64,000 nt of DNA from Escherichia phage vB_EcoM_D4: sequence record PP886228, one strand, 5' to 3'. How positions within the stretch are numbered: position 1 is the stretch's first letter; the number at the start of each line of letters is the position of its first letter. Positions 10,498-64,000 of the stretch are shown here, piece after piece. The translations under genes and the position numbers were made by a program. Below the pieces are notes generated by a model, which had not been told where the DNA came from, ran no database searches, and saw only the letters and a program-made list of their open reading frames with translations.

Positions 10498-10799
10498 TGG
10501 CAGTTTTAAATTGGTCTACAAATGAAGTAGATACTGATGGTAACCAGTTAAAAGTTTTACCACCACCGGAAGTTCAAGAGACAGGTCTTTTAAAGGGTGA
10601 ACCTATGGGTAGACAGTGGTTCAACTATATTATCAACTACCTGCTTAATAAAGTAAACGGCACTGTTGGTGAAGTTCGCTCATATGCAACTGAGCAACCA
10701 GATTTAGTGGCTAATGGCTGGAATCTGATTAAGTCTGAGACAGGGACTGCATCAACAAGTACAAGAAACCTTTACACATATGAATATGTAGGAGCTTAA
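10497..10799 (+). CDS. tail fibre-associated small protein
   Basis: 100-aa ORF coupled upstream of fibre gene. Confidence 0.3.
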
Positions 10800-43447: not shown

Positions 43448-43502
43448 AAAGATACTATAAGGGGACTGTAAAGGTTCCCTTTTTATTTTTTGTGGAGATA
43501 CT

Positions 43503-50774: not shown

Positions 50775-50804
50775 TTGACAAGGGGCTTCAAAGCCCCTTA
50801 GAAT
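50775..50804 (+). promoter_or_regulatory. promoter with hairpin-forming spacer
   Basis: TTGACA, 18-bp spacer containing ggggcttcaaagcccc palindrome, TAGAAT. Confidence 0.45.
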
Positions 50805-50849
50805 AACCTCACAAAAATGATTTATTAACTAACAAGAGAGAGCAATAAG

Positions 50850-55614: not shown

Positions 55615-56400
55615 ATGGGTATTGTAAAAATCATCAATGGGGATATCTTCTCCGCATTTGATAAAGGTAAGTTTGATATCATTGGTCACGGTTGCAACTG
55701 TATGAACTTAATGGGTGCAGGTATCGCTGCCAAGATTTCTAAACTTTACCCAAAAGCATATGAGACCGATACAGAAGTTTATCTGTATGCAGGTGGTATA
55801 GGCCACAAACCCTGTGAAAATTTACTAGGTAATTTCTCTGTAGCACGTTTAGAACAAGGCCGTATAGCTAACCTTTACACTCAGCTTAAGACTGGTAAAG
55901 ATGCCCGATACAGTGCTTTAGAGTCATCTTTGAAACAGCTTAACAGATACTGTGAAGTCAATCAGTTGAAGAAAGTTGGGTTACCTATGATTGGTGCAGG
56001 TATCGGTGGACTAGACCCTCAAGCCGTCGCAGTTATCATTAATCAGGTGATGAAGAGTGTAGATGTGTATCTGTATGTCTACGAAGGCGAGATGTACCAC
56101 AAGTTACGCTCAGGTTGGAAGAACTACTGTGAACCAGAATACTTTGCAGGTGTAGTAATGTTCACAGATGATACAGTTACCCTCTTCAGACGAAGAAAAG
56201 GTAAGATACATCAAAGTAACCCTCCGGTTGAGAAGATGTCTCTAAGTAACGCTCTAGTTACCCACCTGTCGAAGAGCAATCACAGAATTGCAGTAACATT
56301 TGGCAGTGATGCAGATACATATATCTATGCAAGAACTGATGAGGATGTTGAGGAAATTTTCTCTTCACCGGAAGTTACCTTCTTAGACGCAAAGAACTAA
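55615..56400 (+). CDS. macro-domain (ADP-ribose binding/hydrolysing) protein
   Basis: N-terminus IINGDIFSAF...DIIGHGCNCMNLMGAGIAAKI matches macro-domain NGDIT / G-rich loop layout. Confidence 0.5.
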   Translation: MGIVKIINGDIFSAFDKGKFDIIGHGCNCMNLMGAGIAAKISKLYPKAYETDTEVYLYAGGIGHKPCENLLGNFSVARLEQGRIANLYTQLKTGKDARYSALESSLKQLNRYCEVNQLKKVGLPMIGAGIGGLDPQAVAVIINQVMKSVDVYLYVYEGEMYHKLRSGWKNYCEPEYFAGVVMFTDDTVTLFRRRKGKIHQSNPPVEKMSLSNALVTHLSKSNHRIAVTFGSDADTYIYARTDEDVEEIFSSPEVTFLDAKN

Positions 56401-56469
56401 GAAACTCTGTAGAATATTCACAATAGACTAAGCCTTTCTTATCTGGTAAATTTTTCAGGTAAGGAGGGC

Positions 56470-56660
56470 TTTTTCATTTCAGGATTGTGCAGGCAGAGTT
56501 CTGTAGAGAAATCTGTAGAGAAAATTTTGAACTCCAAAGAGAAAATTCATTTTCAAACTGTGCAGGTAATCTCCAAAGAGCTTTTTCATTTTCAAAACGT
56601 GCAGACCCCGCTCAGGTCGGGCAAGAAAAATCATTTTAGAATTGTGCAGGTAGGTGGGTG
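56470..56660 (+). repeat. direct repeat array of about 40-45 bp units ending in GTGCAGG
   Basis: ttcatttcaggattgtgcagg, ttcattttcaaactgtgcagg, ttcattttcaaaacgtgcaga, tcattttagaattgtgcagg, plus ctccaaagag x2 and tctgtagagaaa x2. Confidence 0.6.
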
Positions 56661-56828
56661 CAGGTGGGGATGTCGCCATTTCTCACAAGGCTACCACATC
56701 TGGAAATAAAAGTCAACAGAAAAATTTGTAGCGGATTGAAAAATAATTCTTGATTATAGTTCTGTTTTGTGGTAGTCGCGTGCGCCCGTTTCATTACAGT
56801 TTTTGCAAAAATATTTTTAAAATTTTTC

Positions 56829-56857
56829 TTGACTCTCTGACTATGGTTATTTAATAT
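56829..56857 (+). promoter_or_regulatory. sigma70-type promoter heading the small-gene array
   Basis: TTGACT, 17-bp spacer, TAATAT; followed by ATCAACGGGG leader hairpin and conserved RBS. Confidence 0.55.
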
Positions 56858-56917
56858 TTGCATCAACGGGGGGCGATGACCTCCCAGCTAACTAACCTTA
56901 AACTAGGAGATTCAAAA

Positions 56918-57298
56918 ATGGCTTATCGTGCACCTAAATTCATCAACAAAGACAACTTTCGCAACGTACTGGAGAAGGCACTTGATGAAAAATTTAACGG
57001 TAAAATAATTGTTGTTCATGCGTTCAATTTCAAGTATGATATCAACGGGAATAAAATCAACCATTACACGGCAACCATGTTAGATGGTACGCTATCAAGT
57101 GAAAAAGCCGTACTGAATGCACTGGCAGGACGTGGTAAAAACCTGATAAAATGCGATAAGAGACGTTATCAGGGCGGCGCATATGGTTACGATGATGCTG
57201 TTTACCATCTTGAAAATATGGGCTATTCAGTGGAAAAAGCTGGAATATCTCAAATAATCGGCAGTGACGGCTATGTGACAATTTTCAAAATTAACTGA
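56918..57298 (+). CDS. array gene 1, hypothetical
   Basis: Start at ATG following conserved ctaggagattcaaaaATG; 126 aa. Confidence 0.45.
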   Translation: MAYRAPKFINKDNFRNVLEKALDEKFNGKIIVVHAFNFKYDINGNKINHYTATMLDGTLSSEKAVLNALAGRGKNLIKCDKRRYQGGAYGYDDAVYHLENMGYSVEKAGISQIIGSDGYVTIFKIN

Positions 57299-57306
57299 TA
57301 AAGTAC

Positions 57307-57341
57307 TTTACAAGGGGCTTATAGTTCGATAAAGTAAGCCC
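57307..57341 (+). promoter_or_regulatory. class-B promoter/hairpin module
   Basis: TTTACA, 17-bp spacer, TAAAGT; palindrome ggggctta...taagcccc spans spacer and -10. Confidence 0.45.
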
Positions 57342-57386
57342 CAGATAAAGAGCTTTACCACTAAATCCTAAATTGGAGATTCTAAA

Positions 57387-57644
57387 ATGGCTATTATCAA
57401 AAACGTTGTAATTACTGCAAAAACTCGTGATGACGCTCGCATTATGGCTAAAAAGTTATGCGGGAAAGTGATTGACAACGGAAAAAAATCTGCTGTAAGA
57501 TGGGGCGTGAAAGCTGATAAGCAACTAACCTTAAAACGTAATTCAAGCAACCTTTTTAAAGGTGTGGAAACACTTGGTAAAGTGAACGTATTCACTAAGC
57601 AAGGTTATAAAATGCACTTATCATTAACTGGTAAATTAATCTGA
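57387..57644 (+). CDS. array gene 2, small basic protein
   Basis: 85 aa after conserved RBS. Confidence 0.45.
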   Translation: MAIIKNVVITAKTRDDARIMAKKLCGKVIDNGKKSAVRWGVKADKQLTLKRNSSNLFKGVETLGKVNVFTKQGYKMHLSLTGKLI

Positions 57645-57652
57645 TAAAGTAC

Positions 57653-57687
57653 TTTACAAGGGGCTTAAAAGCTGATATCTTAAGCCC
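57653..57687 (+). promoter_or_regulatory. class-B promoter/hairpin module
   Basis: TTTACA, 17 bp, TATCTT; palindrome ggggcttaa...ttaagcccc. Confidence 0.45.
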
Positions 57688-57734
57688 CAGATAAAGAGCT
57701 TTACTACATTAACCTTAAACTAGGAGATTCAAAA

Positions 57735-58247
57735 ATGAAAACTGTAGACGCTACCTTTGAAGTTGTAAAAGAAAAATTTTCCATCATTTACGAAGCTGTT
57801 AACTGCTACGAAGCAAGCCATAGCCTTGATAATTGGAAATTTACAGATAATCATCAAGGTGGCGTGACTATTAAAAACCCCAACTATCGTTATAATGCTT
57901 TTAAATATGCAATCCCTTTACATTACAGCCTTAAACAGCTTTCGAGTGACTATGCAAAACAAGGCCGGGAAAACCCTTCAAAAGAGGCTTATATCAGCTT
58001 ACAAAGAGAACTAGAAAGGGATTTAGAGGCTTCAGCATATAATATTGCCGCGAAAGTTGTGGATGCAAACGGTAAAACGGTTTTAGAAAGTTTTTATACT
58101 GGTTACGCTTTTGATTGGGCATACAGTGACGGCGAAGATTTAGAGGATAGACTAAAAGAGGAGGTGAGCAATTCAGGCGCAGAATCTGAAGTATTAGAAC
58201 GCTTGGAAGCATTAAAAGATTCAGTGATGAATATCTTTAAGAACTAA
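57735..58247 (+). CDS. array gene 3, hypothetical
   Basis: 170 aa. Confidence 0.45.
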   Translation: MKTVDATFEVVKEKFSIIYEAVNCYEASHSLDNWKFTDNHQGGVTIKNPNYRYNAFKYAIPLHYSLKQLSSDYAKQGRENPSKEAYISLQRELERDLEASAYNIAAKVVDANGKTVLESFYTGYAFDWAYSDGEDLEDRLKEEVSNSGAESEVLERLEALKDSVMNIFKN

Positions 58248-58256
58248 ATAGATTTC

Positions 58257-58290
58257 TTTACACGGGGCTATCAAGCTGATAAGATAGCCC
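58257..58290 (+). promoter_or_regulatory. class-B promoter/hairpin module
   Basis: TTTACA, 17 bp, TAAGAT; palindrome ggggctatc...gatagcccc (compensatory arm changes). Confidence 0.45.
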
Positions 58291-58336
58291 CAGATAAAGA
58301 GCTTTATTAACTAACCTTAAACTAGGAGACTCAAAA

Positions 58337-58633
58337 ATGAAATTATCAAATAAAGTTAGGGAAAATCTAAGCAAGTTACTCAACAAAATTGATTTTATCG
58401 AGACATCAAGGAATAGTCATGATGTTATGGAATGGTTACACGGAAAAATCAAAGGCCGTCGTGTAGTGATTTGCTTATGGAATAGTTGCAGGGAATATAA
58501 AAAACCTGTATTACAAGTCAATATCTATGATGATACTTTTAAAAGCCATGTAAAGTCTAAAAGTGATTTATTAGAATCCTATGAGATAACTGTAAATGGC
58601 AAAGTATCACGTAAAGAGGAAACACCATGTTAA
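58337..58633 (+). CDS. array gene 4, hypothetical
   Basis: 98 aa. Confidence 0.45.
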   Translation: MKLSNKVRENLSKLLNKIDFIETSRNSHDVMEWLHGKIKGRRVVICLWNSCREYKKPVLQVNIYDDTFKSHVKSKSDLLESYEITVNGKVSRKEETPC

Positions 58634-58959
58634 TGACTGGTATCACTGCAATCATTGCCATTTTCGCGCTATATAAGGCATATAAAGCCTATAATCTAGC
58701 AAATAAGGCAATCACACAGCAGGTTAGCAATAGCCTTGTAGAAAGCTTTCTAGGGCGTCTCAGTGATGAGCAAATAAAGCGGTTAGAAATGAGCTTCAGA
58801 TTTCAATCGAGAACTTATCAAATCAGCGACATTTTCAAAGATGATTTTCAGCTTGTCGATGATTATAACTCCCTGATAAATGCTTTAAATATCAGTGACT
58901 TAAAAGACTATTACGCTGTAATTGTCCAAGAATTGAGCAAACGAAAAAATTTATCTTGA
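58627..58959 (+). CDS. array gene 5, membrane-anchored protein
   Basis: N-terminal TM helix GITAIIAIFALY; overlaps previous gene, no own promoter. Confidence 0.4.
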   Translation: MLMTGITAIIAIFALYKAYKAYNLANKAITQQVSNSLVESFLGRLSDEQIKRLEMSFRFQSRTYQISDIFKDDFQLVDDYNSLINALNISDLKDYYAVIVQELSKRKNLS

Positions 58960-59012
58960 TTTTGGTTTTTAAAACAAGTAAATTACTAATCAACGGGGAG
59001 GGAATGACCTTC
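58956..59012 (+). promoter_or_regulatory. class-A promoter plus leader hairpin
   Basis: TTGATT, 17 bp, TAAATT, then atcaacggggaggg aatgac cttcccc. Confidence 0.5.
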
Positions 59013-59050
59013 CCCCACTAAATAAAGTCCTTAAACTAGGAGATTCAAAA

Positions 59051-59323
59051 ATGTATACTACTAACAATGGTCGCACTTTAAACGTAACCCTGCGCCACTA
59101 TGTGAACGGTGTAATGCACTTCGAGGATTTACAAGCTGAACAACATATACTAGATTGGCAACTTGCAGGACTCCAAAAAACTGCTACCGGATACGGGAAA
59201 AAGATTCCAACTAGCTGGAAAGTATACTACGAAGGACGTTTGCGCAGAATTTATCAAGATGTATGCAGCAATAGCGCATCAAGTTACATCATGGTAAAAG
59301 GTGAAAAATTACACTTAGCATAA
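59051..59323 (+). CDS. array gene 6, hypothetical
   Basis: 90 aa. Confidence 0.45.
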   Translation: MYTTNNGRTLNVTLRHYVNGVMHFEDLQAEQHILDWQLAGLQKTATGYGKKIPTSWKVYYEGRLRRIYQDVCSNSASSYIMVKGEKLHLA

Positions 59324-59328
59324 AGTAC

Positions 59329-59363
59329 TTTACAAGGGGCTTATAGTTCGATAAAGTAAGCCC
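59329..59363 (+). promoter_or_regulatory. class-B promoter/hairpin module
   Basis: Identical to module at 57307. Confidence 0.45.
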
Positions 59364-59408
59364 CAGATAAAGAGCTTTATCACTCAATCCTAAATTGGAG
59401 ATTCTAAA

Positions 59409-59813
59409 ATGGCTATTAATAATCGTGAGTTATCAATCTTAAAAGCACGTTTGACCGTTAACCGGATTAATGTTATTACATCATCAGCACCTGATGAGAC
59501 ATTGCACAACATTATCGGGAAGATTCAAAGTGTTATCTTAGACGTTGAAAGCGTAAAAAACTCACTGGCTGACGTTGCAGCAGGTATCACGCTAGACGGT
59601 GCACAATATGAAATGGCTGACATGTTAGGCAAATCTAAGGTAATGAATAAAGAGCTTGATTTAAAAATGTTCCGCTTTGCCGTGAAAGTGTGGCTATCTG
59701 TCGAGTATGACGCAAATTTTGCAATCGCTGACTTTTTCGCAACATGGTTGCAACGTAATTTAACAAATCATGATTTTCGTGATATCTGCGACGTAATTTA
59801 CGCAGAACTTTAA
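59409..59813 (+). CDS. array gene 7, hypothetical
   Basis: 134 aa. Confidence 0.45.
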   Translation: MAINNRELSILKARLTVNRINVITSSAPDETLHNIIGKIQSVILDVESVKNSLADVAAGITLDGAQYEMADMLGKSKVMNKELDLKMFRFAVKVWLSVEYDANFAIADFFATWLQRNLTNHDFRDICDVIYAEL

Positions 59814-59824
59814 AAATTTCTCTT

Positions 59825-59881
59825 GATTTTGGTTTTTAAAACAAGTAAATTATTAATCAACGGGGAGGGAATGACCTTCCC
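59825..59881 (+). promoter_or_regulatory. class-A promoter plus leader hairpin
   Basis: Identical to module at 58956. Confidence 0.5.
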
Positions 59882-59916
59882 CACTAAGTAAAGTCCTTAA
59901 ACTAGGAGATTCAAAA

Positions 59917-60120
59917 ATGGCTATTATTAACGGCTTAAACATTGAAACTACTCACATCAAAGATATCAAAGTTGGTGATATAGTCCTTTTTCACGGCGTA
60001 GAAAAAACCGTCACTGAAAAGGATATCAAGGAGGATTCATTCATGGGCCGGACTCTCTTCGGTGATTCCTATTGCTTAGGTTACCTTGCAGTTTTAAAAG
60101 TTGTCAAAAATAACCGTTAA
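59917..60120 (+). CDS. array gene 8, hypothetical
   Basis: 67 aa. Confidence 0.4.
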   Translation: MAIINGLNIETTHIKDIKVGDIVLFHGVEKTVTEKDIKEDSFMGRTLFGDSYCLGYLAVLKVVKNNR

Positions 60121-60124
60121 AGTA

Positions 60125-60159
60125 CTTTACAAGGGGCTTATAGTTCGATAAAGTAAGCC
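60125..60159 (+). promoter_or_regulatory. class-B promoter/hairpin module
   Basis: Identical to module at 57307. Confidence 0.45.
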
Positions 60160-60206
60160 CCAGATAAAGAGCTTTACCACATTAATCCTAAACTGGAGAT
60201 TCAAAA

Positions 60207-60749
60207 ATGAAATGCTTTCACGGTACTACTCAAGAAAACTTCGTCAACCTGATTAATAACGGTGATAAACCATCAGGCGCATGGAATTGTTCGGATATGG
60301 ATGGCAATTTTTACGTTTATCCAGAAAATAAAATCTATGGCGACGATGAGGAAGAAATAATCTCTGAAGGCATTCAACAAGCTTTAGGTAATGCCACTAT
60401 AACGGCAGCTTTTCAGATGAAAACTCAAAACATTGTTATCTTGGAACTTGATATTCCAGAAGATGAGTTGAATGATGATTATTCTTGTGATAATATGTCG
60501 AGTGTGGCAAGTTTTACAGAGTATTTTGATATAAGCTGGATTAAAAAGGTTTATATCACTGAATTTAATGCTATGTTTTCACCTTTTTGTCTTCCTTCAC
60601 TGGATAACCCGAACTTAAACTATCTTGATGAGTCTCTGGAACTTCTCGCTAAAAGTGTTCAGCAATCGGACAGTATTCAGGTTTTTTGTGACATCATGGA
60701 TACACTAACAGGAAACATTGCAGAAGAGGATTTGAAGAGTTTTTTCTAA
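60207..60749 (+). CDS. array gene 9, acidic protein
   Basis: 180 aa, Asp/Glu-rich throughout. Confidence 0.45.
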   Translation: MKCFHGTTQENFVNLINNGDKPSGAWNCSDMDGNFYVYPENKIYGDDEEEIISEGIQQALGNATITAAFQMKTQNIVILELDIPEDELNDDYSCDNMSSVASFTEYFDISWIKKVYITEFNAMFSPFCLPSLDNPNLNYLDESLELLAKSVQQSDSIQVFCDIMDTLTGNIAEEDLKSFF

Positions 60750-60781
60750 AAACCTATGCAATCACCTTATAAACACTGATT

Positions 60782-60801
60782 AGCCCCTCACAGGGGCTTT
60801 T
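60782..60801 (+). terminator. terminator-like hairpin
   Basis: agcccctc acaggggct then TTT, followed by aggagg RBS. Confidence 0.4.
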
Positions 60802-60815
60802 AGGAGGCTTTAATC

Positions 60816-61049
60816 ATGCTTACAACCATTTACCTCATCCTTTCTATCTGTAATGGTCATTCGTGTGACTTTAAAGGGCTTGAAGAGTTTACAGGAAGTA
60901 AAGAAAATGCTATTCAAGTGTGCCAGATAGCAAGGCAAGACTATCCCGCCAGTGATGATATACAATGTTACTTTAAGACAGAAGATGAAGACGGTGTCTA
61001 TTTTGACAGCGTAGACGGTCAATATGAAATTATCATTGAAAAAGACTAG
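60816..61049 (+). CDS. array gene 10, hypothetical
   Basis: 77 aa, hydrophobic N-terminus. Confidence 0.4.
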   Translation: MLTTIYLILSICNGHSCDFKGLEEFTGSKENAIQVCQIARQDYPASDDIQCYFKTEDEDGVYFDSVDGQYEIIIEKD

Positions 61050-61067
61050 ACAAGCCTGATAAAAGTC

Positions 61068-61100
61068 TGTAAATTGTCAATCAACGGGAGGTAATAACCT
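61068..61100 (+). promoter_or_regulatory. class-A -10 and leader hairpin
   Basis: TAAATT then atcaacgggagg taataa cctcccc; -35 weak. Confidence 0.4.
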
Positions 61101-61138
61101 CCCCACTAAGTAAAGTCCTTAAACTAGGAGATTCAAAA

Positions 61139-61480
61139 ATGGCTTATGTAACCGTAATTACCGACAAAGCTGGCTCATCTTGGTCAACTCAAGTAAGCGA
61201 TAAGATGTCACCTATGAAGTGCCTAAAATACTTTGAGCAATGGAACAAAGGCGAGGATGTCAGCCCCTTTCAAGTGATGCAGATTATCCATACAGATAAC
61301 GAAGGGAATAAAACTGTTTTGAATAGTGAGTACTACGCAACCCGATTTGAAACGAGATGTAAAGCAATGAAGCTTTTGCGTGAGTCTGGTTATTCTCATA
61401 TTGCCTCACTAATCTGGGATGACCTGCTAAAAAATCAGCGTATCAGCTATGTAAAACCTGAAAAAATATTCATCAGTTAA
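61139..61480 (+). CDS. array gene 11, hypothetical
   Basis: 113 aa. Confidence 0.45.
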   Translation: MAYVTVITDKAGSSWSTQVSDKMSPMKCLKYFEQWNKGEDVSPFQVMQIIHTDNEGNKTVLNSEYYATRFETRCKAMKLLRESGYSHIASLIWDDLLKNQRISYVKPEKIFIS

Positions 61481-61512
61481 TCAACAACTTACAAAAAACT
61501 TTTAAAAAGATG

Positions 61513-61580
61513 TTGACAATCCCTCTTGACATTGGTAACTTTGTTCGAGGGGGTTTATCTAAAAGGGATTAACTTAAAAG
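61513..61580 (+). promoter_or_regulatory. conserved element with tandem TTGACA boxes (second copy)
   Basis: TTGACAatccctcTTGACAttggtaactttgttcgaggggg; aligns with 26062-26130. Confidence 0.4.
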
Positions 61581-61608
61581 ATTCTTTATAGATAAACTTA
61601 AAAAATTG

Positions 61609-61668
61609 CTTGCAATCAACTATCAAAACAAGTAAATTACTAATCAACGGGAGGGATAACCCCCCCCC
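61609..61668 (+). promoter_or_regulatory. class-A promoter plus leader hairpin with poly-C
   Basis: TTGCAA, 17 bp, TAAATT, atcaacgggaggg ataa cccccccc. Confidence 0.5.
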
Positions 61669-61815
61669 ACTAAATAAAGTCCTTAAACTAGGAGATTCAA
61701 AAAATGAACAAGTTCAAAGCTATCAACTTCATTCGTTCCCCCCCCACTAAATAAAGTCCTTAAACTAGGAGATTCAAAAAATGAACAAGTTCAAAGCTAT
61801 CAACTTCATTCGTTC
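61661..61815 (+). repeat. tandem duplication (78 + 77 bp) of leader-RBS-start codon segment
   Basis: Segment from poly-C tract through ...atgaacaagttcaaagctatcaacttcattcgttc occurs twice back to back; copies differ by one C. Confidence 0.8.
61704..61754 (+). pseudogene. truncated 16-codon duplicate of array gene 12 start
   Basis: MNKFKAINFIRSPPTK then stop; created by the duplication. Confidence 0.5.
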
Positions 61816-62311
61816 AAATAGTGTTATGTCAAAGCCTGTTAAAGATACCTATGAATTTCGTTGCAATGGGGTGCATTTTGCAACCATTACCAAATCAGAA
61901 AACGGAGCTTATTACATCCATCGCCGTAATGTTGCAACCGTTGTTGTCTCTCACTTTATGCAAGCTGTCGCGGAACTTCTCCCGATGTTTTTAGGGCTTT
62001 ACTTGGATGAGTGTAAAAACGTTCACAATCACGTTAAAAACCTTTTAAACAGTTATAAAATGGCTTATGAACGTTCTATCAAGTCCTTAAACAAGTTTTA
62101 CAACGCACCTAAAAATACTGTATCAATGGCCTACGATGTAAATGGTGAGGCGGTGAGTCTCTTTGAAGTGGAAGAAATCAAGCTGCATGATTTACGCCCT
62201 AGCGGTGACTCTAAGACTCTCGGTGAAGGTTTAACGTTCAATATCAAGAACTTAGAGAAAACTTTAAAAGATATTGAAAAAGATATTGACGAGACAACCA
62301 AAAATCTGTAA
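61781..62311 (+). CDS. array gene 12, hypothetical
   Basis: 176 aa. Confidence 0.45.
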   Translation: MNKFKAINFIRSNSVMSKPVKDTYEFRCNGVHFATITKSENGAYYIHRRNVATVVVSHFMQAVAELLPMFLGLYLDECKNVHNHVKNLLNSYKMAYERSIKSLNKFYNAPKNTVSMAYDVNGEAVSLFEVEEIKLHDLRPSGDSKTLGEGLTFNIKNLEKTLKDIEKDIDETTKNL

Positions 62312-62345
62312 ATTGTCAATCAACGGGAGGGAATGACCTTCCCCA
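62286..62345 (+). promoter_or_regulatory. class-A promoter plus leader hairpin
   Basis: TTGACG, 17 bp, TAAATT inside the 3' end of gene 12, then atcaacgggaggg aatgac cttcccc. Confidence 0.45.
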
Positions 62346-62376
62346 CTAAGTAAAGTCCTAAACTGGAGTTATCAAG

Positions 62377-62640
62377 ATGGAAAACGTAGAATTAACCGCA
62401 CTATTGCAGATTGCAACTGATAAAGAGGATGTAGCACTGTTCCACCGCATTGAAAGCGATTTGTTCAATGGTGAAATCATTAAAGAATCTTACGAAGTTG
62501 TCGGATTCAAAGATGGTAAATCATTTGGATTCTTTGACCTCGACAAAGGCAAAGCGGTTACAAAATATGATGTTTTATCTTGTGAGATTCTGACAAAATA
62601 CAACGAAAAAAGGCTTGCAACATACGACAACATGCAGTAA
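62377..62640 (+). CDS. array gene 13, hypothetical
   Basis: 87 aa. Confidence 0.45.
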   Translation: MENVELTALLQIATDKEDVALFHRIESDLFNGEIIKESYEVVGFKDGKSFGFFDLDKGKAVTKYDVLSCEILTKYNEKRLATYDNMQ

Positions 62641-62672
62641 ATTACTAATCAACGGGGAGGGATAACCTCCCC
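62615..62672 (+). promoter_or_regulatory. class-A promoter plus leader hairpin
   Basis: TTGCAA, 17 bp, TAAATT, atcaacggggaggg ataa cctcccc. Confidence 0.5.
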
Positions 62673-62706
62673 ACTAAGTAAAGTCCTTAAACTAGGAGAT
62701 TCAAAA

Positions 62707-62955
62707 ATGGCAACTATCCGCGCAACTGTCAATGCTTATGGCTGTTATACTCTGGACGTTAAATTTGATATTGGTGGAACTGATGAGTGTTTTTCATTAG
62801 TGAAGACAGTTATCAAGCAAGTTATCCCAGATTATAACCCTACTGATGACTTCTGGAAAGATGCTGTAAAAGAGGCATTAAACGACGAGCATCACTATCA
62901 TTACTGGGGTGACTTGATTATCTCACTGTACTACAATAAACAAGGTTACAACTAA
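62707..62955 (+). CDS. array gene 14, hypothetical
   Basis: 82 aa. Confidence 0.45.
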   Translation: MATIRATVNAYGCYTLDVKFDIGGTDECFSLVKTVIKQVIPDYNPTDDFWKDAVKEALNDEHHYHYWGDLIISLYYNKQGYN

Positions 62956-62965
62956 TCGCCGCAAC

Positions 62966-63017
62966 GGGGCTAAATAGCCCCAGATACCTTCACAGCCCCA
63001 TTTAAGGGGCTTTTTTA
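62966..63017 (+). terminator. double hairpin terminator closing the array
   Basis: ggggctaaatagcccc then agcccca ttt aaggggct followed by TTTTTT. Confidence 0.6.
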
Positions 63018-63413: not shown

Positions 63414-63433
63414 ATGCTAGCCCCCTTAACATT

Positions 63434-63515
63434 TTCTTAACAATTTCTTAACAACCCCTACATAGTTATGCTTGTTAGCAACTTGTTAGCCCCTTGTTAA
63501 ATCTCTGTTAAAACC
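63434..63515. repeat. convergent TGTTAAG-family iterons
   Basis: ttcttaaca x2 (inverted orientation) facing cttgttagc, cttgttagc, cttgttaaa, ctgttaaaa. Confidence 0.55.
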
Positions 63516-63715
63516 ACGTAAAAGCCTTGTAAGAGTCTTTAGCATAGCCTTTAAAGCCCCTGTAAAGCCCTATAAATAGCTTTCTGTATAGTTGGGGTGT
63601 AATTACTAGGGAGAGACTAAAAAGAGCTTATAAGGAGCTATAGAAAGCTTTTAAGAGGGCTATTTAAAAGGTCACTAAGAAAGGAAAGGGAACGATAAGA
63701 AAAGAGATAGTGACC

Positions 63716-64000
63716 ATGTTAATAGCTTGTTAAAAAGATTAAACACTTGTTAGGAACTTGTTAATTATCTTAACAAAATAACTCTTTAAAATTAACTTGT
63801 TAGCTCTTGTTAGTCATCTGTTAAGATTCTATAAAGACCATGTAGCAACTGTTAAGAAACTGTTACACCCTTGTTAGTTCTGTTAAGAATCTGTTAAGAC
63901 CTCTGAAGAGATGTTAAGAGGTTGTAAGAACTGTTAAGAGATTGTTAAGGATATTTTAAAATTCTGCAAAGGGGATGTTACAGGGATGTTAAGGGCTACC
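63716..64000 (+). repeat. direct iteron array, consensus YTGTTAAG at about 10-11 bp spacing (runs to window end)
   Basis: About 20 copies: cttgttag, cttgttaat, tctgttaag, actgttaag, gatgttaag, attgttaag, gatgttac ... Confidence 0.7.

Follow-up and report, generated by a model that had tools for sequence, protein, structure and literature searches.

Predicted promoter, hairpin and ribosome-binding-site cassettes in a small-gene array of the Felix O1-like phage vB_EcoM_D4, and their likeness to the promoter-early-stem-loop elements of T4-type phages

Promoter-early-stem-loop (PeSL) elements are known from the T4-type phages RB49/phi1, PST/T4, and nt-1/KVP40 (Arbiol et al., 2010, PMC2839356; Comeau et al., 2014, PMC4122927). 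Such an element combines the stop codon of the preceding gene and some AT-rich sequence with a sigma-70-like early promoter (spacer of 16–18 bp), a G-tract/C-tract stem-loop and a Shine-Dalgarno (SD) sequence with the start codon; PeSLs separate small, functionally uncharacterised genes in hyperplastic regions, and the insertions and deletions by which close relatives differ have their crossovers inside the motif (PMC2839356; PMC4122927). The stem-loop either occupies the space between the two promoter boxes, overlaps them, or follows closely after the -10 box, and a hairpin overlapping the -10 box is among the commonest arrangements (Arbiol et al., 2010, PMC2839356). For the PeSLs of RB49/phi1, promoter activity, terminator activity and mini-circles have been demonstrated. 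Here, we analyzed a stretch of 64,000 nucleotides from Escherichia phage vB_EcoM_D4 (PP886228), referred to below as the window, in which 14 small genes (g1 to g14) are arrayed between intrinsic terminators at 56.47 and 62.99 kb, and 12 of them are preceded by a conserved 5′ cassette, seven of class A and five of class B. We consider it likely that this array is a hyperplastic early-gene region of a Felix O1-type myovirus, the cassettes of which act as self-contained expression units exchanged by recombination.

Cassette anatomy and genomic setting of the array

The initial annotation of the window had reported small genes of 67–180 amino acids (aa) with near-identical 5′ modules, and this holds for the 14 + strand genes, the modules being found at 56.9–62.7 kb. 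Its wording that every small open reading frame (ORF) has such a module is true of 12 of them, since g5 is translationally coupled to g4 through a stop/start overlap, ATGTTAATGA, and g10 possesses its own AGGAGG after a terminator-like hairpin. The ribosome-binding-site (RBS) module appears as the exact 25-mer CCTTAAACTAGGAGATTCAAAAATG upstream of six genes and as close variants, CCTAAAyTGGAGATTCwAAAATG or AAAAAATG, upstream of six further genes. A fuzzy scan recovered 13 copies, all at 56.9–62.7 kb, the 13th belonging to a 77-bp duplication (see below), and none in the other ~83 kb of the ~89-kb genome, represented by the window and by positions 1–25.6 kb of Escherichia phage vB_EcoM_I14.1 (I14.1). 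A degenerate version of the module was found four times, against 0.01 expected by chance. The two classes were initially thought to alternate, but along the array they are arranged as A B B B – A B A B – A A A A, with class A in front of g1, g6, g8, g11, g12, g13, and g14 and class B in front of g2, g3, g4, g7, and g9.

From 5′ to 3′, class A cassettes consist of an AT-rich stretch, a -35 box, a spacer of exactly 17 bp, a -10 box, four bases and ATCAAC, then a G-tract/C-tract hairpin whose loop varies, ACTAAGTAAAGT, and finally the RBS module. The sigma-70-like promoter with its 17-bp spacer and variable-loop leader hairpin, as proposed in the initial annotation, was thus seen in all seven. 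Their -35 boxes are TTGACT, TTGATT, TTGCAA, TTGACG, or TAGACA, while the -10 box is TAAATT in six cases and TAATAT in one. The latter is found in the g1 cassette (56829–56920, + strand), together with TTGACT, ATCAAC, a hairpin at 56868–56885, the RBS module and the ATG at 56918. The remaining class A cassettes, all on the + strand with 17-bp spacers and TAAATT, are those of g6 (58956–59053; TTGATT, hairpin 58995–59015), g8 (59814–59919; TTGATT at 59823, hairpin 59862–59882), g11 (61047–61141; TAGACA, hairpin 61086–61103), g12 (61610–61783; TTGCAA), g13 (62286–62379; TTGACG, hairpin 62325–62343, RBS variant CCTAAACTGGAGTTATCAAGATG), and g14 (62615–62709; TTGCAA, hairpin 62654–62672). The -35 box of the g11, g13, and g14 cassettes is situated inside the 3′ end of the upstream gene; for g13, g12 contains the spacer as well, and its stop codon contributes to the -10 box.

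Class B cassettes run from a stop codon through AAAGTAC, TTTACA, a 17-bp spacer, TAnnnT and AGATAAAGAGCTTTA to the RBS module. The 5′ arm of their hairpin, GGGGCTTA, lies inside the 17-bp spacer and the 3′ arm, TAAGCCCC, starts at the last base of the -10 box; class B can therefore be described as a predicted promoter with a hairpin straddling the -10 box. This class, left without interpretation in the initial annotation, fits the PeSL design as well, as a promoter with a hairpin overlapping the -10 box. On the + strand, and each with TTTACA and 17 bp, class B cassettes precede g2 (57299–57389; TTTACA at 57307, TAAAGT at 57330, hairpin 57314–57342, AGATAAAGAGCTTTA, RBS variant CCTAAATTGGAG), g3 (57645–57737; TATCTT, hairpin 57660–57688), g4 (58248–58339; TAAGAT, hairpin 58264–58291 with arms GGGGCTAT/ATAGCCCC), g7 (59324–59411; TAAAGT, hairpin 59336–59364), and g9 (60121–60209; TAAAGT, hairpin 60133–60161). 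The g9–g10 junction (60782–60818, + strand) has no cassette; it is made up of the terminator-like hairpin AGCCCC-TCAC-GGGGCT (60782–60798), a short T-run, AGGAGG and the g10 ATG.

The g12 cassette holds a 77-bp exact tandem duplication (61661–61737 and 61738–61814), whose limits are the poly-C arm of the leader hairpin and a point 33 nt into g12, and which gives rise to a decoy ORF of 14 codons. I14.1, although otherwise identical, lacks it, and the junction of the duplication is contiguous in none of 206 matching phage records. As 77 is a common assembler k-mer length (SPAdes defaults), the duplication is probably an artefact of circularising assembly. One might suspect the repeats as a whole to be a by-product of recent tandem duplication or assembly error, given that one 77-bp exact tandem repeat does resemble an assembly artefact. 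Yet, the array genes are mutually unrelated, the cassettes occur in 246–287 independent phage records from four genera, and the repeats are already present in the Sanger-era sequences of Felix O1 and wV8, which leaves this explanation with a practically negligible probability.

Over the region 56.7–63.1 kb, the window is 100% identical to I14.1 at 56700–61738, the 77-bp duplication being the only difference, and ~90% identical to many Felixounavirus genomes; 258 phage records match in total. Judging by this similarity, the window phage is a Felixounavirus, i.e., a Felix O1-like myovirus of the subfamily Ounavirinae. The array corresponds to Felix O1 genes 14–23 and is flanked on the + strand by the published terminators t13 (56430–56471; a 17-bp stem followed by a T-run, sequence as in Whichard, 2010) on the left and t23 (62994–63011) on the right, and these two bracketing structures are the only canonical terminators. 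Positions 63420–64000 are identical to I14.1 positions 1–581 and represent a 581-bp direct terminal repeat; hence, the array fills the ~6.5 kb that precede the right terminal repeat, its genes being oriented for transcription toward the genome end. In UAB_Phi87, a terminal repeat of 608 bp has been demonstrated experimentally.

Several side observations concern this setting. The GenBank record of I14.1 (PP892526.1) is filed under Demerecviridae/Tequintavirus (T5-like), while every relative is a Felixounavirus; by its sequence the phage belongs to the latter genus, and the taxonomy of the record is wrong. The ~1.6-kb non-coding stretch 3′ of the array is dense in short TGTTA(A/G) words (~20 on the + strand within 63.3–64.0 kb), and CTTAACA is also present; these words may be packaging or protein-binding sites. 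Between t13 and the first array promoter (56465–56660), there are four ~30-nt units ending in TCATTT(T)CAnnAnnGTGCAG(G), which resemble iterons or operators. Outside the array, too, a promoter is combined with a G/C hairpin in places, at 50775–50810 and 43461–43479 of the window and at 10714–10739 of I14.1, one example being TTGACA, 18 bp and TAGAAT with GGGGCTTCAAAGCCCC in the spacer. These composites are devoid of the uniform RBS module, and the combination of promoter and G/C hairpin appears, from such occurrences, to be a general regulatory habit of this phage.

Conservation of the predicted promoters, the hairpins and the RBS module

Promoter conservation was counted in 70 class A and 67 class B instances from 13 Ounavirinae, i.e., the window phage and 12 relatives from the genera Felixounavirus, Mooglevirus, and Suspvirus. 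In class A, the T1, A2, and T6 positions of the -10 box are each retained in 70/70 instances; the first three -35 positions are T in 68/70, T in 59/70 and G in 68/70, and a recognisable -35 box at 17 bp is present in 68/70. In class B, TTTACA is kept in 65 of the 67 instances, as is TAnnnT exactly 17 bp downstream, the exceptions being due to Ns in one unverified record. TTTACA is situated entirely outside the class B hairpin, and positions 3–5 of the class B -10 box vary among all four bases, a conservation pattern which points to a sigma-70 -10 element and not to the hairpin. A generic consensus scan of the window called the five class B promoters without exception, together with four of the seven in class A, and the Erwinia phage Coenus retains TTTACA, 17–18 bp and TAnnnT. 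The sigma-70-like early promoter of a PeSL thus has its counterpart here at the sequence level.

No phage-encoded RNA polymerase was found in Felix O1 (Whichard, 2010), so the host holoenzyme is the expected reader. Each cassette would represent a host sigma-70-type promoter, and with a promoter per cassette each small gene could be transcribed alone soon after DNA entry. In reverse transcription PCR (RT-PCR) of Felix O1, ORFs 16, 20, 21, and 22 were assigned to 5 min and ORFs 14, 17, 19, and 23 to 25 min, with none late, which is consistent with early to middle expression of the array.

The same data can be read in favor of a single polycistronic operon driven by the promoter at 56829, where the hairpins would be sites of RNA processing or stability and the promoter-like hexamers would be incidental. 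The genes are co-directional and only two strong intrinsic terminators bracket the array; moreover, 25 min and not 5 min is the time of peak signal for half of the array ORFs of Felix O1, and G-U wobbles in the class B stem show sense-RNA selection. What makes this reading unlikely is the choice of conserved positions: they are those read by sigma-70 (T-12, A-11, and T-7), whereas -10 positions located in the hairpin loop or stem vary. Both TTTACA and TTGnnn lie outside the hairpins and are nevertheless conserved at a fixed distance of 17 bp, and the class A promoter, which lies wholly upstream of its hairpin, keeps the consensus positions while the sequences differ between cassettes.

As for the hairpins, each of the 51 different class A leaders folds into one, whose stem invariably begins exactly 6 nt past the A of ATCAAC. 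The stems are 4–9 bp long, with free energies of -5 to -16.6 kcal/mol, and differ in sequence: GGGGAGGG/CCTTCCCC, GGGAGG/CCTCCC, GGGGG/CCCCC, GGGGT…GCCCC, GGGA…TCCC, and GGTGAGGGA…TTCCTCACT. In class B, 99.6% of the stem cells are paired among 26 distinct sequences, compared with 57–61% when the partners are slid by one column; taken with the alignment that adds Coenus, these figures are 99% and 54–61%. Pair 19–31 alternates between AU, UA, and UG, and adding Coenus reveals a second compensatory pair, 13–37, changed from GC to UA (GGTG…CACC). In the g4-type cassette, CTTA/TAAG is swapped for CTAT/ATAG; the 3′ arm shifts by one base between these registers, and since a single alignment cannot hold both, this swap was read by eye and stands outside the counts. 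The one-sided class B changes (C to T in columns 15 and 38) leave a G-U pair in the sense strand and would give an A-C mismatch in the antisense strand, which argues for selection on sense RNA or on sense single-stranded DNA. A scan of 55–64 kb against Rfam returned no known RNA family, only a chance microRNA match (E = 0.43).

The two classes may differ in what their hairpins do. In class A, the hairpin would begin ~5 nt after the predicted transcription start (within ATCAAC) and form a 5′-terminal stem-loop preceded by at most ~5 unpaired bases. Stem-loops of this kind protect E. coli mRNAs from 5′-end-dependent decay, as known for ompA from the work of Belasco. In turn, the class B hairpin cannot form in its own transcript because its arms straddle the -10 box; it would form only in read-through RNA arriving from the upstream gene, where it may serve as an attenuator or a 3′-end stabiliser and insulate neighboring units.

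The RBS module—SD, A-rich spacer and ATG—would provide the genes with the same translation start. We observed that conserved bases upstream of the SD pair with its core in a mini-hairpin of 3–4 bp (e.g., at 59027–59045 and 57365–57381 of the window), which takes the form TCCT-TAAACT-AGGA or TCC-TAAACT-GGA and, in Coenus (2660–2680), CCTT-ATA-AAGG. Between the two forms seen in enterobacterial phages, the difference is a coordinated insertion of T…A, by which the mini-hairpin gains one base pair. Such a mini-hairpin is present in 91 of 99 distinct RBS modules compared with 4 of 44 other phage genes with an SD, and the RBS variants CCTTAAACTAGGAG and CCTAAACTGGAG swap between orthologs. The genes g1, g2, g7, g8, g11, and g14 (6/14) start with Met-Ala, ATGGC(T/A), and ATGGCTATTA is common to the starts of g2, g7, and g8; thus, the cassette similarity extends a few codons into otherwise unrelated genes.

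The pairing of the SD invites another explanation, namely that the cassettes are conserved mainly as operators. A phage regulator would bind either the near-palindrome TAAAG-AG-CTTTA, located just downstream of the predicted class B start, or the SD-pairing hairpin, and would shut off the early genes together, transcriptionally or translationally in the manner of T4 RegA. The invariance of AGATAAAGAGCTTTA from enterobacterial to Erwinia phages agrees with this, and so do a conservation exceeding what the SD requires and the pairing of the SD core with upstream (T)CC(T) in the 91/99 modules, maintained in three sequence variants. On the other hand, no candidate regulator was identified, the mini-hairpin is just 3–4 bp long, and the modules are homologous copies, so that the 91/99 are not independent. 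We regard operators as an improbable main cause of the conservation; the idea adds to promoters and recombination without replacing them.

Gene exchange among relatives and the array genes

Presence/absence polymorphism with breakpoints in the modules, anticipated in the initial annotation, is what the relatives display, and their array content and order are not identical. Genomes ~90% identical to the window cover 96% down to ~30% of the 7.5-kb region. Among the 13 phages, the order of shared genes is mostly kept and single genes are gained or lost: g1, g2, g3, g8, g9–g10, and g13 are each missing in some, e.g., g3 in wV8 and SP116, g8 in Felix O1, and g13 in Felix O1, UAB_Phi87, allfine, Bas63, pinkbiff, and NBEco004, and at least eight genes of the relatives are not present in the window. 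A change of position across two genera was detected for gene x15, located after g11 in EcSzw_1 and before g11 in 3HA14. The genes g1, g2, g9, g11, and g14 are preceded by either class A or class B, depending on the phage; cassette class is a property of the position and not of the gene. The counterpart of the array in Bas63 (64.6–70.5 kb) falls in an interval of non-essential or mixed-essentiality genes, as the PhageMaP preprint describes ~46–66 kb of Bas63 as uniformly non-essential and ~66–80 kb as small genes of mixed essentiality.

Three deletion junctions were aligned against both flanking cassettes of the window, and each proved to be a hybrid. In wV8, deletion of g3 left a single hybrid cassette with the g3-type hairpin followed by g4; in Felix O1, the cassette at the g8–g10 deletion has its crossover between hairpin and RBS; in UAB_Phi87, the g13 deletion joined the left promoter to the right hairpin loop by a crossover inside the hairpin. 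In total, 23 of 26 distinct homology breakpoints are located at most 10 nt from a cassette, while cassettes make up 27% of the length (binomial p = 6e-11). With 60–100 bp of near-identical sequence at the gene boundaries, homologous recombination can delete, insert or move whole genes and leave their expression intact; it would take place between cassettes within one genome or between co-infecting relatives. We also noted in Salmonella phage SP116 (8149–8324) an 88-bp exact tandem duplicate of a class A cassette, spanning from the spacer to the ATG and forming an "empty" cassette upstream of g8, which is either a footprint of cassette recombination or an assembly artefact.

Instead of passive homologous recombination, a dedicated, integron-like system could recognise the GGGG…CCCC hairpin. 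Crossovers in or beside hairpins, the tandem cassette duplications in SP116 and in the window, and the same G-tract/C-tract design in T4-type PeSLs, for which this possibility was raised by Arbiol et al. (2010, PMC2839356), are in line with it. It is, however, very improbable: no recombinase is associated with the array, 60–100 bp of identity suffices for phage homologous recombination, and the crossover points are spread over hairpin, leader and RBS, with no single fixed site. In a bolder form, to which we would grant a slim chance, the array would be a gene-capture platform of virulent phages resembling an integron without an integrase, where a phage enzyme recognises the hairpins that single-stranded DNA forms in the course of replication and excises circles of a gene plus its cassette. 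If this were true, circles could be packaged, or exchanged among co-infecting Ounavirinae, counter-defence genes would spread in ready-to-express form, and the hairpin design shared with unrelated T4-type phages would reflect a shared mechanism and not coincidence.

Recombining, self-contained early expression units remain our preferred reading, against which several points have to be weighed. No U-tract follows the hairpin in either class, which sets these hairpins apart from canonical intrinsic terminators. Covariation is limited, as most stem positions never vary, and the roles proposed for the hairpins are deduced from position and pairing only. The cassette copies are related by descent and gene conversion, and the near-identity of the modules could partly be due to concerted evolution rather than to selection on every base. 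The breakpoints were counted in 12 genomes that are related to one another, and they do not represent independent events. The timing obtained by RT-PCR is crude, with the later peak applying to half of the array ORFs, and a literature search turned up no study in which 5′ or 3′ transcript ends were mapped for a Felixounavirus.

The distribution of the cassettes was determined by blastn (word size 11) of both classes against 50,697 phage records, which were classified by record name, with taxonomy confirmed for the records opened. Class B was detected in 287 records, nearly all with names of Felix O1-like phages (Ounavirinae), including 29 Erwinia phages; by name, one Staphylococcus phage, one Campylobacter phage and two others matched as well. 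Class A was found in 246 records, none of them from Erwinia phages, and in this search neither cassette matched any T4-type phage. The homologous region of Coenus contains class B-like cassettes with a different, but again uniform, RBS module, CCCTTATAAAGGAATCAAGAAATG, which shows that the modules evolve in concert within each lineage while the overall design is conserved. The repeats themselves had been recorded before: the Felix O1 paper lists 57-bp and 39-bp repeats merely as "direct repeat" (Whichard, 2010), the wV8 record labels them DR_1 to DR_9, and in the ASO1A record class A is annotated as a promoter and a "terminator." We found no paper in the searched literature that links the repeats of Felix O1-like phages to PeSLs or describes PeSL-type cassettes there.

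The array proteins are mutually unrelated (best E = 0.54), and this includes g6 and g8, for which a common family was rejected, the apparent link having come from ORFs extended through the shared cassette. The absence of recognisable domains, as initially reported, stands at the sequence level: a Pfam scan gave no match for any of the 14 proteins, and a PHROGs scan placed all of them in PHROGs of unknown function. On the + strand, these are g1 (56918–57298, 126 aa, phrog_4495), g2 (57387–57644, 85 aa, phrog_5089), g3 (57735–58247, 170 aa, phrog_4190), which equals Felix O1 ORF16, g4 and g5 (58337–58959, 98 and 110 aa, the latter with an N-terminal hydrophobic segment), g6 (59051–59323, 90 aa, phrog_3436), g7 (59409–59813, 134 aa, phrog_4327), g8 (59917–60120, 67 aa, phrog_3623), g9 (60207–60749, 180 aa, phrog_3303), g10 (60816–61049, 77 aa, phrog_4640), g11 (61139–61480, 113 aa, phrog_4318), g12 (61781–62311, 176 aa, phrog_4725), g13 (62377–62640, 87 aa, phrog_7022), and g14 (62707–62955, 82 aa, phrog_4559).

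At the level of structure, g9 departs from that picture, since its AlphaFold model has a weak ADP-ribosyltransferase (ART)-like fold, with a mean predicted local distance difference test (pLDDT) score of 67.6. H5-G-T and Y36 are conserved in the g9 family (326 clusters), the support for an ART at the sequence level being faint, and we treat the ART-like fold as possible but not established. The g9 protein is an ortholog of Bas63 gp107, reported in the PhageMaP preprint to be slightly similar to the NAD-binding domain of RNA 2′-phosphotransferase and conditionally essential in strain S17-1. Directly upstream of the array (55615–56400), we noticed a gene for a macro-domain protein (PF01661, E = 4e-8), annotated as "phosphatase" or "O-acetyl-ADP-ribose deacetylase"; together with g9, it could be an eraser/writer pair of ADP-ribosylation.

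Comparison with known systems

Outside the T4-type phages, three systems resemble the array in part. The host-takeover module of Bacillus phage SPO1 is reported to comprise about two dozen small early genes, mostly of unknown function, at the genome terminus, located within a terminal redundancy of 13 kb and equipped with numerous host-type promoters and ribosome-binding sites of high strength. It shares with the array the small early genes at the terminus and the host-type promoters; we know of no uniform hairpin cassette or cassette-mediated gene exchange described for it. The morons of lambdoid phages (Juhala et al., 2000, via Arbiol et al., 2010) are likewise single accessory genes with their own promoter. 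They also have their own terminator and, unlike the array genes, lack conserved flanks, are scattered and are thought to have been inserted by illegitimate recombination. With integrons, the array has in common a series of unrelated small genes, between which lie structured repeats that serve as the sites of gene gain and loss. Yet, integrons depend on an integrase, attC sites and one common promoter, while here 12 of the 14 genes have a predicted promoter of their own and no recombinase is evident.

PeSLs were proposed to drive gene turnover in the plastic regions of T4-type phages. The occurrence of a non-homologous PeSL equivalent with clean hybrid junctions in the Felix O1 subfamily suggests that a uniform promoter–hairpin–RBS linker at accessory-gene boundaries is general among large virulent phages, and carries the known PeSL idea over to another phage family. 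Biocontrol of Salmonella and E. coli makes wide use of Felixounaviruses, and Bas63 is a model phage. In such phages, the cassettes mark sites where genes could be inserted or removed without disturbing expression, and they offer 12 compact candidate parts, each an early promoter with a 5′ untranslated region. The array is also an obvious place to seek host-takeover and counter-defence genes.

The closest likeness is to the PeSLs themselves, and the PeSL-like design in a non-T4 phage, suggested in the initial annotation, is borne out by the features of this Felixounavirus sequence. The composite intergenic order of elements is the same, with the stem-loop over the -10 box in class B and downstream of it in class A; 12 of the 14 junctions fit, the genes are small and of unknown function, the region is plastic and crossovers occur inside the motif. 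The differences are that the host genome belongs to the Ounavirinae and not to the T4-type phages, and that no blastn similarity to the T4-type motifs was found. The cassettes form one array at a genome terminus, whereas T4-type PeSLs are present in several regions, and their 3′ RBS module is far more uniform. Activity and mini-circles were shown in RB49/phi1, while the cassettes described here are known from sequence alone. On these grounds, the array seems to work like a PeSL array and may be either an independent or an unrecognisably diverged member of that type of system in another phage family.

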